Source of the DNA: Candidatus Wukongarchaeum yapensis
GTDB taxonomy: Archaea > Asgardarchaeota > Wukongarchaeia > Wukongarchaeales > Wukongarchaeaceae
DNA length: 7,181 nt
Assembly: GCA_016840425.1 (NCBI GenBank)
Contig: JAEOSI010000117.1
Span: forward strand, 1-7,181
Direction: 5' to 3'
Of the stretch, positions 82-7,058 are shown piece by piece. Each line of letters opens with the position of its first letter. Position 1 is the stretch's first letter. The notes under the pieces are model-generated. The model was not told the origin of the DNA, made no database searches, and saw only the letters and a program-made list of their open reading frames with translations. Made by a program: the position numbers and the translations under genes.

Positions 82-531
82 TCATAAGTATTTCTCTTCT
101 TCGAGCTTTATCCATTTCTCGAGTTTTTCTACTTCGCTACCTTTTACCAAATTTTGGTCATTATCAAGCTCTTCTTCAAGATTTTTTGCTTCAAAGATAA
201 CAAACCATCCCTCACGATAAGGCTTTTCATTAGCTATCGACGGGTGTTCTGATATTTCCGGATTTATTTCAACTATTTTCCCAGATAATGGGATTATTAA
301 TGGGCCTGTCCATTTACCGCTTTCTATCGTAGCGAAAAACCTGCCTTTTTCAAGCTCTTTTCCTTTTTTCTGCAACCTTATAGAAATAATTTCCTCGTTA
401 TTTTTTGCAGCAAAATCATCGATGCCCATCTTTACTTTGTCTTTTCCAATGATTTTTATCCATATATGACCTGGGTCACTTATATCAATCCAAACATCGT
501 CCGGGTAGTAATATCTTCCTACTTGCCCCAA
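82..531 (-). CDS. gcvH: Glycine cleavage H-protein-like lipoyl-carrier protein (GcvH/LbpA family)
   Basis: 149 aa with H-protein motifs HIWIK, MGIDDFA, lipoylation motif TIESGKW (Lys73, nt 315-313), PLSGKIVEIN and NEKPYREGW. TTG start with GGAGG SD at 543-539 (7 nt spacer). Confidence 0.9.
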   Translation of the reverse strand: MGQVGRYYYPDDVWIDISDPGHIWIKIIGKDKVKMGIDDFAAKNNEEIISIRLQKKGKELEKGRFFATIESGKWTGPLIIPLSGKIVEINPEISEHPSIANEKPYREGWFVIFEAKNLEEELDNDQNLVKGSEVEKLEKWIKLEEEKYL

Positions 532-679
532 AGGTTTTCCTCCAACTTTCAGTTATTTTTCGATTTTAAGCCATGTCTTAGAAAAAGGGATAAAAGTATT
601 AGCTGTCTTTTTTGTTTAAAATTTTTGCATGATTGGATTTAAATTTAAGGGATGGACCTATCTTTTTTTAATTATTTTT

Positions 680-715
680 AAAAGCTTATAATATTATAAA
701 ATAAAAGTTTTTAAG
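680..715. promoter_or_regulatory. Candidate overlapping divergent archaeal BRE/TATA promoter cluster for hdrA (+) and gcvH (-)
   Basis: Plus strand has AAAAG-CTTATAA (680-691) and AAAAG-TTTTTAAG (703-715); minus strand has AAAAAC-TTTTAT (712-701). All lie in the 283-bp divergent intergenic region. The region is very AT-rich, so the active box cannot be identified. Confidence 0.4.
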
Positions 716-814
716 AATATAAAACTATTTTTTAATAAGGACTGCTAAGAAAAATTGATTAAGTATTTTATCACTCACTTTCAAAGGTTCTTGGTATATT
801 AAGGGGATGAATTT

Positions 815-2803
815 TTGGATAAAGAAAGAATCGGTGTTTTTTTGTGTCATTGCGGCACAAACATCGCCCACACAGTCGACATTGGAAAGGTAAAAAAATA
901 CGTGGAAACCTTGCCAGGAGTAGTTTTTGTTAAAGATTACAGTTATATGTGTTCTGATCCGGGTCAGCGTTTGGTTAAAGAAAGCATAAAAGAAAATGGT
1001 TTAACCAAGGTAGTTATAGCGGCTTGCACTCCTAGGCTTCACGAATCTACTTTTAGGGAGACATTAAGAGAGGGAGGATTAAACCCCTACAATTTGGAGA
1101 TCGCTAACATAAGGGAGCATTGCTCATGGGTTCATGATAACAGGGAGATTGCTACAGAGAAAGCAAAAGATATCATAAGGATGGCTATTATGAAAGCAGC
1201 ACTCTTAGAACCTCTAGAAGAGCGTGAAATAGAGGCTGTTAAAGAAGTTTTAATCGTTGGCGCAGGCATCGCAGGCATATCTACAGCCCTAATACTGGCA
1301 AATAGCGGTATAAAAACTTATATCGTAGAAAAAGAACCCTCAATAGGCGGAAAAATGGCCCAACTTGACAAAACCTTCCCTACTCTAGATTGTAGTGCTT
1401 GCATTCTCACACCCCTTATGGTTGACGTTGAAAGAAACCCCCTAATCGAGATTTTATCTTATTCTGAAGTTGAAAGCGTTGAGGGATATATAGGGAATTT
1501 TAAAGTAAAAGTCCGCAGAAAACCCCGATATGTGAGGAAAGATCTTTGTACATCTTGCGGGCTTTGCTGGGAAAACTGTCCAAGCAAAAACGTACCAAAT
1601 GAGTTCGACCTTGGTTTAAGTACAAGAACCGCGATCTATATCCCTTTTCTTCAAGCCGTGCCAGCAATACCTGTAATCGACGCTGAAAATTGCAGGTATT
1701 TCCAGGGTTTAAAAGAAGGAAAAGAAAGATGTAAAATATGTCAAAAAAAGTGTCCAGTAAACGCGGTAGACTATACGATGGAAGAAAGTTTCATAGAACT
1801 TGAAGTAGGCGCCATCGTGGTAGCTACAGGTTATGAAATTTTTGATGCATCCCAAAGACCCCAATACGGATATGGCAAGTATAAGGACGTGATCATCGGG
1901 TTACAATTTGAGCGGTTAATAAGCGCTTCAGGTCCCACTGAAGGCGGAATAATAAGGCCAAGTAATGGGCAAATACCAAAGTCTGTTACCTTCATAAACT
2001 GTGTGGGAAGCAAGGAATCTGACGGTAACCAGTGGTGTTGTCGTTACGGATGTATGGCTTCTTTAAAACAGGCCTTACAAGTAAGAGAAAAGTATCCTGA
2101 AGTAGAAGTAAACATCTGTTTTACGGATATGAGGGCCTTTGGAAAAGGTTATGAAGAACTTTATAGACGGTGTCGGAAGACTGGAATTAATTTCATAAAC
2201 GGTCTTCCTAGTGAAATTTATGAAACCTATGGCGAAGGAAAACACCTCTATTTCACGGTTTTTGACGGTTTTTTAAACGAAGTTATCAGGATTGACACAG
2301 ATCTTGTGGTTCTCCAGGTAAACATGGTTTCTCCAAAAGAGACCGGAGAACTTGTGAAAAAATTGGGTTTATGTACTAGTGGAGACGGTTTTTTCCAAGA
2401 GGCTCATGCTAAACTTCGCCCCATTGAAACGCCCACTCCCGGCGTGTTTTTGGCAGGAACTTGTCAAGGGCCAAAAGATATCGTGGATACTGTATGCCAT
2501 GCGAAAGGTGCTGGAGGGGATGTTTTAAAACTCCTTCAAAAAGGGATAATAAAAATTGAACCTATCTCCGCAGAAGTAAACGAAGAACTTTGCAGTGGGT
2601 GTGGGATGTGCGAGCCAGTTTGTCCCTACGGCGCAATAGTCATAGAAGTAAAAGAAGATGGGAAAAGGTTGGCAAAAGTTATTCAGGCAAAGTGTGTCGG
2701 TTGTGGTACTTGTGTTGCTACTTGTCCAAGTGATGCTATTATAGCACATAACTTTACAACAGAGCAAATAATTGCTCAAATTAGAGCGGCGGTGAGTCCC
2801 TAA
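815..2803 (+). CDS. hdrA: Heterodisulfide reductase subunit A (FAD/Fe-S flavoprotein, electron-bifurcating type)
   Basis: 662 aa. N-terminal GVFLCHCG, CSDPG, AACTP, REHCSW. FAD-binding GAGIAG. DKTFPTLDCSAC. Inserted ferredoxin (CTSCGLCWENCP; C...CKICQKKCP), FERLISASGPT, CVGS, FLAGTCQGPKDI, and C-terminal ferredoxin (CSGCGMCEPVCP, CVGCGTCVATCP). TTG start with AAGGGGA at 801-807. Confidence 0.97.
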   Translation: MDKERIGVFLCHCGTNIAHTVDIGKVKKYVETLPGVVFVKDYSYMCSDPGQRLVKESIKENGLTKVVIAACTPRLHESTFRETLREGGLNPYNLEIANIREHCSWVHDNREIATEKAKDIIRMAIMKAALLEPLEEREIEAVKEVLIVGAGIAGISTALILANSGIKTYIVEKEPSIGGKMAQLDKTFPTLDCSACILTPLMVDVERNPLIEILSYSEVESVEGYIGNFKVKVRRKPRYVRKDLCTSCGLCWENCPSKNVPNEFDLGLSTRTAIYIPFLQAVPAIPVIDAENCRYFQGLKEGKERCKICQKKCPVNAVDYTMEESFIELEVGAIVVATGYEIFDASQRPQYGYGKYKDVIIGLQFERLISASGPTEGGIIRPSNGQIPKSVTFINCVGSKESDGNQWCCRYGCMASLKQALQVREKYPEVEVNICFTDMRAFGKGYEELYRRCRKTGINFINGLPSEIYETYGEGKHLYFTVFDGFLNEVIRIDTDLVVLQVNMVSPKETGELVKKLGLCTSGDGFFQEAHAKLRPIETPTPGVFLAGTCQGPKDIVDTVCHAKGAGGDVLKLLQKGIIKIEPISAEVNEELCSGCGMCEPVCPYGAIVIEVKEDGKRLAKVIQAKCVGCGTCVATCPSDAIIAHNFTTEQIIAQIRAAVSP

Positions 2804-3234
2804 TGGAAACAGAAAACGAGGGAGAATTTGAACCTAGAATTGTCGCCTTTTTATGTAATTGGTGCAGTTATGCAGGTAGTGATGTCGCAGGGCTTCAAAG
2901 AATGAAGTATCCTCCAACAGTTCGAATAATTCGTGTTATGTGCAGTGGTAGAGTTGAGCCTAGCTTCATATTAGAAGCTTTGCGAGATGGCGCCGACGGC
3001 GTTTTAGTTGGAGGATGCCACATTGGAGATTGTCACTATATTTCAGGCAATAAAAAGTGTGTTGCGAGGATAGCTCTGACAAAGGAGCTTTTAAAACAGT
3101 TGGGAATAAACCCTGAAAGGTTAAGGCTTGAATGGATAAGCTCTAGCGAATCTGGAAAGTTTGTTAAAATAGTTGAAGATTTTACGAAAGATTTGAAAAA
3201 AATGGGGCAAAATCCCCTTAAATCCCTTGAATAG
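2803..3234 (+). CDS. mvhD: MvhD-type [2Fe-2S] subunit (methyl-viologen-reducing hydrogenase delta / Hdr adaptor)
   Basis: 143 aa with FEPRIVAFLCNWCSYAGSD, IRVMCSGRV, DGVLVGGCHIGDCHY and GINPERLRLEWIS. ATG overlaps the hdrA stop (TAATG, 2801-2805); GGTGAG SD at 2791-2796. Confidence 0.95.
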   Translation: METENEGEFEPRIVAFLCNWCSYAGSDVAGLQRMKYPPTVRIIRVMCSGRVEPSFILEALRDGADGVLVGGCHIGDCHYISGNKKCVARIALTKELLKQLGINPERLRLEWISSSESGKFVKIVEDFTKDLKKMGQNPLKSLE

Positions 3235-3273
3235 TAGGCAGTTTTTGATTTGAAATGCAAAGGTGAGTTTTTG

Positions 3274-3816
3274 ATGGTATTAGTTCTTGAGCAAAGGGAT
3301 AAAGTACTAGTCGAAGAAACGTTGAGAATTCTCGGCGAACAAGACCCTTTAGCTTGCTATCAGTGTAATAAATGCACTTCTGGTTGTCCTATCGCTTTAG
3401 TAAGACAAGATTTCAGGCCCCATTTGATAGTTCAACAAACTAGGATGGGTTTAAAAGACGTACTAATAAAGGAAGAAGCCATTTGGTATTGTTGTCAATG
3501 TTTAAAATGTGTGGCACGTTGTCCTCAAAAAGTTGCTCCCTATGAAGTCATTTTCGCTTTAAGAATTTTGGCAGCAGAAGCAGGATACTCCCCTAAAAAT
3601 ATAACAAAGCTGCTTCAAAGCTTCTGGAATAACGGCATGGTCACTACTCCAATGATCATTGTTACAAAAGATTTTGCCGAAGTTACACGGCAAACCTTAG
3701 GTTTGCCCGCCCCTGTTGTCGACACTGAAGGCTTAAGAAAAGCCCTGAAAACCACAAAACTCCCAACGATTATTGAAAATCTAAAGAAGAGAAAAAAAGT
3801 ATCAAAAAAAGATTAA
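3274..3816 (+). CDS. hdrC: Heterodisulfide reductase subunit C (2x[4Fe-4S])
   Basis: CYQCNKCTSGCP and WYCCQCLKCVARCPQKV ferredoxin motifs; located between mvhD and hdrB. Start moved from the ORF-track TTG 3250 to ATG 3274 because of the AGGTGAG SD at 3261-3267. Confidence 0.92.
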   Translation: MVLVLEQRDKVLVEETLRILGEQDPLACYQCNKCTSGCPIALVRQDFRPHLIVQQTRMGLKDVLIKEEAIWYCCQCLKCVARCPQKVAPYEVIFALRILAAEAGYSPKNITKLLQSFWNNGMVTTPMIIVTKDFAEVTRQTLGLPAPVVDTEGLRKALKTTKLPTIIENLKKRKKVSKKD

Positions 3817-3839
3817 TTTTCAACTAGTTGGTGAACCTT

Positions 3840-4694
3840 TTGAAATATCTCCTATACCTTGGTTGCATGGCTAAAAATGAACAAATGGAGTACGAAATCT
3901 CCACCATGGCCCTGCTTAAACATTTTAACATAGATGTTGAATATCTTGGCGATGAAGCCTGTTGCGGCGTACCTGCTAAAAACTTTGATAAGTCTGCATG
4001 GCTAATCTCAAGCGCGCGCCTTTTAGCCCTAGCTTCCCAAAAAAACGGCGCTATATTATCCCTCTGCACAGGGTGCGATCTAAGTTTTGAAGAAACAAGT
4101 CATATTCTCAGAGAAAATGATGTTCTACGGGAAAACATCCAAGAAGCCCTAGATATCATAGGATTAGAATATGATAAAAACATAAAAAGAGTCCACATTT
4201 TCGATTTAATCTATGACGATATCGGAATCAAAAGACTTTCACAAGCAGTAGAAAGAGACATATCACACCTAAAAACTGCCTGTTACTACGGTTGTCACGC
4301 CATAAGAACCCCTGACCTACACCGTTTAGACGATAGTGAAGCACCAACAAAAATGGAAGAAGTAATCGAAGCAATAGGCGGTCAAACAGAAGATTATCCT
4401 GAACGTTTAATGTGCTGCATGGGACCAAACTTATCCTTTGATCCTAAACCTGTTCTAAATAACGTAGGATCAATAATAGACGCTATTAAAAACCGGGGCT
4501 TTAACCTTCTTTCAGTTATATGTCCTTATTGCTTTAAAACCTTCAGCCTAAAACCCTTTCCAGTCCTCTACCTCACAAGCCTAATAGGATACGCAGTAGG
4601 CTTGGATCCAAATTCTTTAGGAATGCGCCTCAACAGATCCCCCATAGAAAAAATCATCCCAGAACTTGCAGAACTCCTCATAGAAGAATTTTAA
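3840..4694 (+). CDS. hdrB: Heterodisulfide reductase subunit B (two CCG domains, non-cubane [4Fe-4S]), divergent
   Basis: Two cysteine-rich domains: LYLGC...CCG...CTGC and YYGCH...CCMG...CPYC, followed by PVLYLTSLIGYAVG. Start moved from 3828 to TTG 3840, which gives MKYLLYLGC (typical HdrB N-terminus) with GGTGA SD at 3830-3834. Confidence 0.92.
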   Translation: MKYLLYLGCMAKNEQMEYEISTMALLKHFNIDVEYLGDEACCGVPAKNFDKSAWLISSARLLALASQKNGAILSLCTGCDLSFEETSHILRENDVLRENIQEALDIIGLEYDKNIKRVHIFDLIYDDIGIKRLSQAVERDISHLKTACYYGCHAIRTPDLHRLDDSEAPTKMEEVIEAIGGQTEDYPERLMCCMGPNLSFDPKPVLNNVGSIIDAIKNRGFNLLSVICPYCFKTFSLKPFPVLYLTSLIGYAVGLDPNSLGMRLNRSPIEKIIPELAELLIEEF

Positions 4695-4767: not shown

Positions 4768-4817
4768 TGAATCATACGTTATAGTAACAAAATTTGGTTT
4801 TAAGGGCGGGACTATTT

Positions 4818-5570
4818 TTGGAAAAGAATGAAGGTGAAATCTCGAAGGTTTTTGACCCCATAGCTGGAAAAGTTAATGAAGCTCTTGAGCTTATTAAAAG
4901 TTTTATTAATAATATTTTAATCGAGAAAGAAGAAGTTGAGAAAAACATTCTCAACCTCGAAAAAGAGATTGAAAAACTAAAAACCCTTAACGACGATTTA
5001 AATCATAAACTCTCAACAAAGGATATCCAGATTAACGAACTAGAAGCAAACATAGCAGAAAAAGATGAACAAATCTCTAGCCTTAAAAAAGAGACTGAAG
5101 AACTACAAACCAAAATAGGCGTTTCTGAAAGAAAGATTGAAGAGCGGGAAAAACAAATCCAAGCTATAGAAGCAGAAAAGAAAGAGTTATCGGAAATTAA
5201 AGGCACGCTCCAAGAAGAATTATCGAGAAAAGCCAAAGAATACGATTCATTACTTGAAAGATTTAGCAAAATATCAGAAGAGTTTTCAACCCTAAGTCAA
5301 AGAGAAAAAGCAGAAATAGACCTAGAAAATCTTCTTTCTGTCTATGTAACCCTTATCGAGGAAATCATAAACGCTAAACCACACATACGCATATTATGGC
5401 TACTCCACGGTGAAAAACAAGTAATGACCGCTAGTGAACTGGCTAAAGCCTCTGGGTTCGAGCCTGCAGTAGTACTCGGCACTCTTCATGAACTTGCAAG
5501 AGGAGACCTGGTAGAATTCTCCCTTGAAACTAAGGAATCAAAACTAAAAAGACGATTATTCAAGGACTAA
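4818..5570 (+). CDS. Uncharacterised long coiled-coil protein with C-terminal winged helix-turn-helix domain
   Basis: Uninterrupted heptad pattern over ORF residues ~48-167, then a wHTH-like segment (PHIRILWLLHG - MTASELAKASG - PAVVLGTLHELARGDLV). Start is either TTG 4794 (ORF track) or TTG 4818 (SD-like AGGGCGGGA at 4803-4811). Confidence 0.8.
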   Translation: MEKNEGEISKVFDPIAGKVNEALELIKSFINNILIEKEEVEKNILNLEKEIEKLKTLNDDLNHKLSTKDIQINELEANIAEKDEQISSLKKETEELQTKIGVSERKIEEREKQIQAIEAEKKELSEIKGTLQEELSRKAKEYDSLLERFSKISEEFSTLSQREKAEIDLENLLSVYVTLIEEIINAKPHIRILWLLHGEKQVMTASELAKASGFEPAVVLGTLHELARGDLVEFSLETKESKLKRRLFKD

Positions 5571-5795: not shown

Positions 5796-7058
5796 ATGTC
5801 TGTTATGAAGTTACGTTCAGTAAGTTTTAGACCCCTTTCCGTTAAAACGGTCCTCAGAGATATGAAAGATCTAGCTTTAATGATGGTCGACTTGGCTTAT
5901 TCTGCGGTCTTGTTCGGTGAAGACGATCTAGCCGAAGAAGTAAGAAACCTTGAAGAATTAGTAGATTATCTCGGCTATCAATTAACCATTAATGCTTTTC
6001 TAGCCGTAAGAGACGCTAAAGACGCTGAAGAAACCCTCGTACTCCAATACGTAGCCACAGCCACTAACAAAATTTCAGACCAAGCAGCCGATATAGCCTA
6101 TATCGTCTCCCGAAAGCTAGGCGTACATAAAGCCATCCAAGATGCTTTTAGTAACCTCGTAGAAGAAAGAGTCACACGAGCCCTCATCCAATCTACCTCC
6201 ATCTTTACCGACAAGTCCCTTGAAAAGCTTGATATTACACCACGTATAGGCGTTGATGTTATCGCAATTAAACGTGATAACAAATGGTTTCTTGATCCCC
6301 AGCCAAACTTTGTGTTGAAAAAAGGCGACGTACTGTTAGTCCGCGGCGGTAAATCCGGAACAGAAGTTTTCAGAAACCTCGCAAACGGCCAAATTAAGTC
6401 ACTAGAAGAAGCAGAAAAGATAGTAGATATGCTTGAAGCACCCGAGGCTAAAGTTATAACCCCCACTAAGAAGGTTGAATTTACCGCAATAGAGGAATAT
6501 CTTCGAGAATTAAAAGACACTTCTGAACTAATAATAGATCTTGCCTATTCCTCCATTCTATTCAACAGTAAACCCCTAGCCGAAGAAGTAATGGTCTTAG
6601 AAGAGTATATGGACGAACTTCACACTTCTTTCGAGCTTTACATCATCTCACAAGGCCCTGTAAAGAACGAAGAAGACGCGAAAAAACGTCTAGGACTAAT
6701 TAGGCTGGGCGTTGCTGCAGAGAATTTAGCTGATGCAGCAGCTCAAATAAGCGAAATAATAATAAGAGGACTCTCACCCCACCCAATCATGGCAAAAATA
6801 CTTGAAGAAACTGATGAAACCTACAAAAGGGTAGAGATCGCTCGAAAATCTCCTCTAAGTGACCAAACATTAAAAGAGCTAGATTTAAAAAACAATCTAG
6901 GCGTTTACGTAATCGCTATCAGACGTGGAAAAGAATGGATCTTCAAGCCTCGCGGAGACACAATTATCCGGCCAAGAGACACATTAATATGCAAATGTTT
7001 TGAAGAGTCTGGGGAAACCTTCGAAAAGATAGCAAGCGGAGAAATCACAGAGTTTTAA
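5796..7058 (+). CDS. Internally duplicated PhoU-like + TrkA-C (RCK_C) domain protein (archaeal COG3273-like family)
   Basis: 420 aa with two homologous halves: MKDLALMMVDLAYSAVLF...LAEEV..LEE...GVDVIAIKR...GDVLLVRG and LKDTSELIIDLAYSSILF...LAEEV..LEE...GVYVIAIRR...RDTLICK. Each half is a PhoU-type helical bundle followed by an RCK_C domain. Confidence 0.85.
   Translation: MSVMKLRSVSFRPLSVKTVLRDMKDLALMMVDLAYSAVLFGEDDLAEEVRNLEELVDYLGYQLTINAFLAVRDAKDAEETLVLQYVATATNKISDQAADIAYIVSRKLGVHKAIQDAFSNLVEERVTRALIQSTSIFTDKSLEKLDITPRIGVDVIAIKRDNKWFLDPQPNFVLKKGDVLLVRGGKSGTEVFRNLANGQIKSLEEAEKIVDMLEAPEAKVITPTKKVEFTAIEEYLRELKDTSELIIDLAYSSILFNSKPLAEEVMVLEEYMDELHTSFELYIISQGPVKNEEDAKKRLGLIRLGVAAENLADAAAQISEIIIRGLSPHPIMAKILEETDETYKRVEIARKSPLSDQTLKELDLKNNLGVYVIAIRRGKEWIFKPRGDTIIRPRDTLICKCFEESGETFEKIASGEITEF
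5841..7043 (+). repeat. Protein-level tandem duplication: unit 1 ~5841-6389 (aa 16-198), unit 2 ~6489-7043 (aa 232-416)
   Basis: Alignable motifs DLAYS, LAEEV, LEExxD, VIAIxR and W-x-x-x-P occur in both halves, separated by a Pro/Lys/Glu-rich linker. Confidence 0.8.

Follow-up and report, generated by a model that had tools for sequence, protein, structure and literature searches.

In Asgard and other non-methanogenic archaea, the genes for the soluble heterodisulfide reductase (Hdr) complex HdrABC-MvhD rank among the most highly expressed ones of energy metabolism. The disulfide substrate of Hdr has been called "unidentified" in Asgard archaea (Valentin-Alvarado et al. 2024, PMC11291895) and "unknown" in the Culexarchaeia (Kohtz et al. 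2022, PMC9723716). The Culexarchaeia are a non-methanogenic TACK lineage without synthesis of coenzyme M (CoM) or coenzyme B (CoB), in which a gene resembling that for the H protein of glycine cleavage (GcvH) lies beside a predicted bifurcating HdrA2B2C2, and GcvH was suggested to carry the unknown disulfide of HdrB, a proposal published without a survey or test of it (Kohtz et al. 2022, PMC9723716). The idea of a lipoyl carrier as Hdr substrate is, thus, not new. A carrier of this kind, LbpA, is genetically essential in sulfur oxidation by the Hdr-like sHdr system (Cao et al. 2018, PMC6067878), and the archaeal sHdr carriers named in the available excerpts of Tanabe et al. (2024, PMC11094781) belong to Thermoproteota (type I) and Thermoplasmatota (type II), with no Asgard archaeon among them. 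Here, we analyzed a 7,181-bp stretch of DNA (the window) from the Asgard archaeon Candidatus Wukongarchaeum yapensis, which is the entire contig JAEOSI010000117.1 of a metagenome-assembled genome (MAG; 2.16 Mb, 277 contigs, 92% complete, contamination 3.3%) and encodes a small, cysteine-free predicted lipoyl protein beside a four-gene Hdr operon. The window adds a minimal, clean example of the carrier–Hdr pairing in an Asgard archaeon and offers a directly testable substrate candidate.

Gene calls and matches to Pfam and NCBIfam profiles placed seven genes in the window (Table 1) and confirmed the layout described in the original prediction, a lipoyl-carrier gene separated by a 283-bp spacer from a divergent and complete hdrA-mvhD-hdrC-hdrB operon, whose intergenic gaps are −1, 15, and 11 nt. 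The order hdrA(-mvhD)-hdrC-hdrB is that of Methanosarcina hdrA2C2B2. When compared to the methanogen enzymes HdrABC-MvhAGD and HdrA2B2C2 (5ODC, 8RVU, 7BKB; M. acetivorans HdrA2, NF040770), MvhD, HdrC, and HdrB are shared and HdrA is homologous from end to end, cofactor motifs included, but MvhD is unfused, HdrB and HdrC score at about half of their family cut-offs, the operon has no hydrogenase or FdhB-type gene, and a lipoyl carrier is encoded alongside. Type I sHdr-LbpA clusters (shdrC1B1AHC2B2; Hyphomicrobium denitrificans, Aquifex, Sulfolobales) are like the window in that an H-like carrier with an ESGKW(V)GP loop is found beside HdrB, HdrC, and HdrA homologs, and a further likeness is the dedicated ligase gene that often adjoins relatives of the window carrier. 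They differ from it in their short sHdrA of ~350 aa, whereas the window HdrA has 662 aa with ferredoxin domains and is accompanied by MvhD. The window also differs in its A-D-C-B order with a single HdrCB pair, in having no TusA, DsrE, or rhodanese gene at the locus, in the absence of the two LbpA cysteines from its carrier, and in its host, an archaeon of anaerobic sediment. The cluster of the Culexarchaeia has CdhA near HdrA2B2C2-GcvH, as the genus of the window has cdhA-cdhB downstream of hdrB, but it also includes a membrane [NiFe] hydrogenase (Ehe) and SdhA, whereas the window holds a minimal divergent pair.

The original description of the Hdr as a full-length bifurcating HdrA type with MvhD was borne out by alignment of HdrA with its bifurcating counterpart from Methanothermococcus thermolithotrophicus (5odc_A), which extends end to end (720 bits, residues 1–657 against 1–647) and includes every cysteine motif. 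The protein has an N-terminal Fe-S domain, a flavin adenine dinucleotide (FAD) domain, and inserted and C-terminal ferredoxin domains; it covers positions 1–641 of the fused HdrA2 model NF040770, and MvhD covers the remainder, so that the two account for the entire model between them. The match to the sHdrA structure 6tjr (Hyphomicrobium) is confined to residues 330–573. HdrC has two [4Fe-4S] ferredoxin motifs (Fer4_8/17 matches), and HdrB has two complete CCG motifs (C13, CC45/46, C80xxC83 and C156, CC196/197, C232xxC235), the ten cysteines of which are invariant in 12 carrier-linked HdrBs. NCBIfam scores against cut-offs were 171/345 for HdrB, 82/160 for HdrC, and 846/1100 for HdrA, and bits per aligned residue against the methanogen structures were 0.56 for HdrB and 1.1 for HdrA. 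HdrB and HdrC have, therefore, diverged far more than HdrA, a pattern consistent with a different substrate on a bifurcating core that has stayed the same. The earlier claim that the substrate loops of HdrB differ from those of methanogens holds in part, in that two short deletions follow the CCG motifs and the second CxxC is followed by a deletion of 12 residues (compared with 5odc_B, 152 bits). The 12-residue deletion, however, is genus-specific and was not found in other carrier-linked HdrBs, so it is no signature of that group.

Identity of the lipoyl carrier

The window carrier shares with GcvH its fold family (PF01597, TIGR00527) and the position of the lipoyl lysine, Lys73, which also aligns with that of LbpA. 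It differs from GcvH in its loop (ESGKW versus ESVKA) and in having no adjoining gcvT or gcvP, and it scored below the NCBIfam cut-offs for GcvH (67.5 versus 115.85 bits for TIGR00527; 95.4 versus 117 for NF002270), while a canonical gcvH is encoded separately in the genus. The trait of LbpA described as the most striking is a pair of conserved cysteines (Kumpel et al. 2026, bioRxiv 10.64898/2026.10.01.755906; Cao et al. 2018, PMC6067878). The bacterial sHdr-linked LbpAs in our comparison set have an N-terminal G-C-(N/H)-(L/I)-P motif and a C-terminal Cys, whereas the window carrier has no cysteine at all.

A homolog search with the carrier protein returned only nine close kin, and the wide survey therefore rests on a genome scan with the pattern [ILV]E[ST]GKW[VTI]GP, which yielded 596 relatives from 185,579 species genomes and by its design favors proteins of the ESGKW type. 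A copy with 87% identity to the carrier occurs in an NCBI record named "Asgard group archaeon". Among the best 80 of the 596 relatives were LbpA genes that end classical lplA...hdrC1-B1-A(short)-hyp-hdrC2-B2-lbpA clusters in Hyphomicrobium, Aquificaceae, Alicyclobacillus, and many Proteobacteria, indicating that the ESGKW loop is LbpA-type. In a quick IQ-TREE phylogeny of 151 H-like proteins, the carrier fell in a 38-row archaeal group beside the bacterial sHdr LbpA clade (99*). The gcvT-linked GcvH genes stood apart from this group, and the branch dividing the two sides, with the carrier on that of LbpA, is very short (SH-like approximate likelihood ratio test 94). Home-trained hidden Markov models (HMMs) gave 109.5 bits for bacterial LbpA and 96.8 for canonical GcvH, and a PDB sequence search at E ≤ 1e-3 returned GcvH entries only and no LbpA entry. 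No gcvT or gcvP was found near any of the 38 archaeal-group members, the window carrier included. By these sequence comparisons, the carrier is an LbpA-like, cysteine-free archaeal H-type protein that would be neither LbpA proper nor GcvH, and the archaeal carriers were found to form what appears to be a cysteine-free lineage distinct from LbpA.

Linkage of carriers to Hdr and other CCG-domain genes

Among close kin, the pairing is conserved. The congener G001 keeps the gene order of the window through the PhoU gene, and four JGI/ENA contigs are also syntenic, with carrier proteins 80–100% identical to that of the window. In these contigs, which extend past the limits of the window, the carrier gene is followed downstream by an MBL-fold gene, and cdhA-cdhB lie ~3 kb downstream of hdrB. 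The 532–814 spacer has a mean identity of 92% over five genus-level copies, in which the carrier proteins are 80–96% identical. Another contig of the same MAG (C177:1–5142) contains the carrier gene and the first 59 codons of hdrA once more, at 95% identity, a near-duplicate that probably represents strain heterogeneity in the bin.

Relatives of the carrier also lie beside HdrB/CCG genes in further families of Asgard archaea as well as in Bathyarchaeia, Thermoproteota, and anaerobic bacteria. With CCG open reading frames (ORFs) detected by a home-made CCG HMM, GlcF-type included, 19 of the 28 archaeal-group carrier genes with readable context were within 3.5 kb of a CCG (HdrB/GlcF-type) ORF, a count that includes one carrier paralog of the window's own genome (on contig C191), judged via its counterpart in G001. 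None of seven gcvT-linked canonical GcvH genes had a CCG ORF within this distance, and our own rough estimate of the adjacency expected by chance is 1–3%. Carrier and CCG genes adjoin in at least eight different gene orders in distant lineages. Since the surveyed rows are related to one another and owe their selection in part to the loop pattern, the weight is placed on this number of architectures and no P value is given.

The arrangements include lplA-carrier-hdrA-hdrC-hdrB (G031), carrier-lplA...hdrC-hdrB (G008), and hdrC-hdrB-hdrA-mvhD-like convergent with the carrier (G028, G018). A single genome, G040, has hdrA-mvhD...hdrC-hdrB-carrier (hdrB-carrier also occurs in G020), hdrA-hdrA-mvhD-carrier-hdrC-hdrB, and carrier-flavoprotein-hdrC-hdrB. 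Desulfomonile has hdrA-mvhD-hdrC-hdrB-carrier, and further carrier–Hdr cases were seen in Desulfobacteraceae, Anaerolineae, and Bathyarchaeia. The window genome itself has a second carrier–Hdr module, split over contigs C191 and C220 and reading dsrE-dsrE-dsrH-tusA-carrier-hdrC... (C191:1–2843). Its counterpart in G001 (C28:1–6200) reads dsrE-dsrE-dsrH-tusA-tusA-carrier-hdrC-hdrB-hdrA(full length)-mvhD-like, and the carrier of this type has an IESGKY loop and two Cys. As annotated, this cluster combines a sulfur-relay set of the sHdr-like kind with a predicted methanogen-type HdrA.

Other carriers are associated with a different CCG enzyme. A translationally coupled glcF(CCG)-glcD-carrier arrangement was found in G025, G004, and a Heimdallarchaeota MAG, and three members of the window carrier's own starred 10-row clade are coupled in this way to a glcF-like (Fer4 + 2×CCG)/glcD-like pair. 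In these operons, the glcF-like, glcD-like (FAD_binding_4), and LbpA-like carrier genes have 4-nt start/stop overlaps (L080:7190–10213 in G025; L096:7399–10435 in JAUVXV010000003.1; L079), so the predicted partner of the lipoyl carrier is a hydroxyacid-dehydrogenase-type CCG enzyme and not Hdr. In Candidatus Terraquivivens ruidianensis (JALNLB010000004.1, L095:220–8941), three H-like carriers lie within 7 kb, each at most 1.3 kb from a CCG ORF of its own. Judged by gene context, CCG-domain enzymes in general, beyond Hdr, were found to be recurrent neighbors of archaeal carriers.

The adjacency first noted in the window is, thus, kept in the congener, in the four metagenome contigs, and in relatives with many arrangements. 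From the linkage of 19/28 versus 0/7, the at least eight gene orders, and the dsrE-tusA-carrier-hdrCBA cluster of the genome itself, it follows that carrier and Hdr are probably functional partners.

A possible lipoyl substrate for HdrB and its alternatives

The window would encode a two-part redox module, consisting of a soluble flavin-based bifurcating Hdr (HdrA2C2B2 type with a separate MvhD) and a dedicated lipoyl carrier. The carrier would be lipoylated, two lipoate ligases being encoded in the genome, and would dock on HdrB, where the lipoyl/dihydrolipoyl pair on Lys73 would serve as the disulfide/dithiol of the two non-cubane [4Fe-4S] clusters, replacing the CoM-CoB heterodisulfide (CoM-S-S-CoB). 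The FAD of HdrA would couple the lipoyl pair (~−0.29 V) to ferredoxin (~−0.5 V) and, via MvhD, to a mid-potential third partner, for example a hydrogenase, F420, or formate-type module. Given the potentials of lipoamide (~−0.29 V), ferredoxin (~−0.5 V), H2 (−0.41 V), and F420 (~−0.35 V), either direction would be feasible: a marginally exergonic bifurcation from donors at the level of H2 or formate, or a confurcation in which dihydrolipoyl and reduced ferredoxin would reduce F420, NAD(P), or H+. Chemically, coenzyme B, as a 7-thioheptanoyl amide, is near the lipoyl-lysine arm. A complex prediction of HdrB with the carrier returned a score of zero, which counts neither for nor against binding.

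The suggestion that HdrB acts on protein-bound lipoamide gains from the recurrent carrier linkage and from the lack of McrA, ComA, and DsrC matches in the genome, and it is weakened by how loose the link is when viewed from the Hdr side. No match to McrA (PF02249) or ComA (PF02679) was found in the 92%-complete genome, in a search that covered these two families and neither CoB biosynthesis nor CoM formation via cysteate; CoM-S-S-CoB is, thus, an unlikely substrate, and the description of the archaeon as probably non-methanogenic holds so far. DsrC, considered as an alternative "bacterial heterodisulfide", was dropped, since it also had no match in this genome. The lipoyl disulfide is our leading candidate for the substrate of HdrB, with a chance that we place at slightly short of even. 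Several observations weigh against it and against the partnership itself. At ~−0.29 V, lipoamide has far less oxidizing power than CoM-S-S-CoB (−0.14 V), which would leave bifurcation only marginally exergonic. The LbpA-side placement of the carrier rests on a very short branch and a 13-bit HMM preference. In 40 Asgard genomes, an H-like gene was found within ~5 kb of only 5 of the 14 closest HdrB homologs and of ~13 of the ~107 HdrB homologs overall. Nine evaluable archaeal-group carriers are unlinked to CCG, and a carrier paralog in the genome itself (on contig C125) has no Hdr nearby. The window carrier is divergent from the hdr genes and not co-transcribed with them, and may be in an operon with the MBL-fold gene next on its strand instead. 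Finally, a dihydrolipoyl dehydrogenase (LpdA) is encoded beside gcvT (595.7 bits versus a cut-off of 592, although clipped by the contig end), and it could recycle the carrier without Hdr.

Several of these points also favor an adjacency without catalytic meaning, in which Hdr uses another thiol/disulfide, either a small molecule or a protein, and the carrier serves a different enzyme (for example with the MBL-fold protein) or is an antioxidant or redox buffer recycled by LpdA. The carrier–MBL pair is kept on the other strand throughout the genus, most Asgard HdrB homologs have no H-like gene nearby, and LpdA and both ligases are encoded elsewhere in the genome. Against such a coincidence stand the gene orders from distant lineages, among them a carrier between mvhD and hdrC and the translational coupling of the glcD/glcF type, the complete absence of CCG adjacency among gcvT-linked GcvH genes, and a 532–814 spacer that is better conserved than the carrier protein. 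On balance, we regard the adjacency as rather unlikely to be meaningless. In the original prediction, Hdr might replace dihydrolipoamide dehydrogenase, and in this reading the carrier would simply be the H protein of glycine cleavage or a reductive glycine route and Hdr a ferredoxin-coupled substitute for the L protein. The fold and lipoyl lysine are indeed those of an H protein, the best-scoring canonical GcvH of the genome has Glu in place of the lipoyl lysine, and the assembly yielded no GcvP. However, the congener has a canonical lplA-gcvH-x-gcvPA-gcvPB cluster in which the lipoyl Lys of GcvH is intact, which suggests that the missing GcvP is probably an assembly gap, the contig with the canonical gcvH (C238) being only 3.6 kb long. 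With an LpdA above cut-off beside gcvT, an E2, and canonical GcvH genes, replacement of LpdA by Hdr is unsupported, and since the carrier also falls below the GcvH equivalog cut-offs and none of its archaeal group lies near gcvT or gcvP, a role as glycine cleavage H protein is very improbable. The related idea that the carrier is the sole lipoylatable H protein, and hence that of glycine cleavage, was dropped in view of the intact cluster of the congener.

Sulfur chemistry as in sHdr-LbpA must also be weighed. In this case, a lipoyl persulfide would carry sulfane sulfur and the HdrB-type clusters would oxidize it towards sulfite or, since the setting is anoxic, reduce it to sulfide, in cooperation with the dsrE/tusA relay elsewhere in the genome. 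The ESGKW loop shared with the sHdr LbpAs of Hyphomicrobium, Aquificaceae, and Alicyclobacillus, the position next to them in the tree, and the presence of dsrE-dsrE-dsrH-tusA(x2)-carrier-hdrCBA in the lineage are all consistent with this, as are the sulfate-methane-transition-zone sediment from which the contigs of relatives come (record name SMTZ1) and the weak matches of the downstream MBL-fold protein to GloB and persulfide-dioxygenase families. Those matches, however, are far under the cut-offs (90 bits versus 200; 37 versus 625), no TusA, DsrE, or rhodanese gene occurs within 10 kb at the window locus or in genus-level relatives, both LbpA hallmark cysteines are absent from the carrier, and this Hdr, with its MvhD, belongs to the full bifurcating type and does not have the short sHdrA. 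The lack of cysteines and of sulfur transferases at the locus favors a plain redox carrier over a sulfur carrier, and we consider sulfur transfer here unlikely. The contrast with sHdr drawn in the original prediction was correct in that this Hdr is full length and has MvhD, but it was too sharp, since the genome has its own dsrE-tusA-carrier-hdrCBA cluster; with full-length HdrA in both carrier–Hdr modules, an opposition of sHdr (TusA/DsrE) to bifurcating Hdr fails in this lineage.

If the lipoyl disulfide is indeed reduced or formed at HdrB, models of Asgard energy metabolism, including those in scenarios of eukaryogenesis, would need revision, lipoate would gain a role outside sulfur oxidation and the metabolism of 2-oxoacids and glycine, and sHdr-LbpA and methanogenic Hdr would be evolutionarily linked. 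A broader version, which we put forward tentatively and regard as doubtful, is that soluble bifurcating/confurcating Hdr and related CCG enzymes (GlcF/GlcD-type) would generally use, as their physiological heterodisulfide, lipoate bound to dedicated H-like carriers in non-methanogenic archaea, the Asgard relatives of eukaryotes included, tying the ferredoxin pool to the lipoyl pool, with CoM-S-S-CoB and sHdr-LbpA as specialized offshoots of an older lipoyl–Hdr partnership.

Features of the window and related loci

The features of the window, whose left edge lies just past the carrier gene, are listed in Table 1.

Table 1 Features of the 7,181-bp window with their coordinates and the matches or synteny that identify them
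Feature	Position	Strand	Evidence
LbpA-like cysteine-free lipoyl carrier, H-protein fold, 149 aa	82..531	-	PF01597 GCV_H 95.5 bits
Predicted lipoyl-Lys73 codon of carrier	313-315	-	loop I-E-S-G-K-W-T-G-P
Divergent AT-rich intergenic region, 283 bp, between carrier gene and hdrA	532..814	.	gene coordinates
hdrA, 662 aa, full-length bifurcating type	815..2803	+	5odc_A 720 bits; NF040770 HdrA2 845.6 bits
mvhD (FlpD family), separate gene	2803..3234	+	PF02662 184.9 bits; NF040770 positions 644-774
hdrC, 2x[4Fe-4S] ferredoxin-like subunit	3250..3816	+	TIGR03290 82.4 bits (cut-off 160); Fer4_8/17
hdrB, catalytic subunit, two CCG domains	3828..4694	+	PF02754 x2; TIGR03288 171 bits (cut-off 345); 5odc_B 152 bits
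Coiled-coil protein, weak C-terminal MarR-like winged helix-turn-helix (wHTH) match, 258 aa	4794..5570	+	syntenic in G001 and JGI contigs
PhoU/TrkA_C-domain protein, conserved neighbor	5796..7058	+	syntenic in G001 and JGI contigs

The gene at 4794–5570 follows hdrB directly throughout the genus, and its product has SMC/Rad50-like heptads and no family assignment. This coiled-coil/wHTH protein may be a regulator and is not assigned to the carrier–Hdr system, and the PhoU/TrkA_C gene is probably unrelated to that system. Farther downstream in the JGI contigs (L089:1–1779, L090:1–2641), cdhA (780 aa, Prismane + Fer4) and cdhB lie on the same strand as hdrB. Contig C177 extends past the left edge of the window and encodes there the MBL-fold protein (weakly GloB-like) together with OapB, a GTPase, and a fragment of IS605 OrfB.

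The genome has five intact H-like genes, namely the window copy, its 95% variant, the C125 and C191 paralogs, and the canonical GcvH on C238. The last of these (C238:1207–1620, minus strand; PF01597, 140 bits) reads IESVEATEDLY, where its congener orthologue reads ESVKATEDL, and the Glu may mean that the lipoylation site was truly lost, or it may stem from strain variation or from a fault of the assembly. Several [NiFe] hydrogenases are also encoded in the genome. One of the two lipoate ligases is fused and is of the type that adjoins carriers in relatives. The C125-type carrier (L204:5567–8772, L208:2377–5553) is followed by a conserved Pfam-less protein of 436–443 aa and a Peptidase_C25-like protein, and a conserved Pfam-less protein of 309–321 aa is encoded divergently to it.

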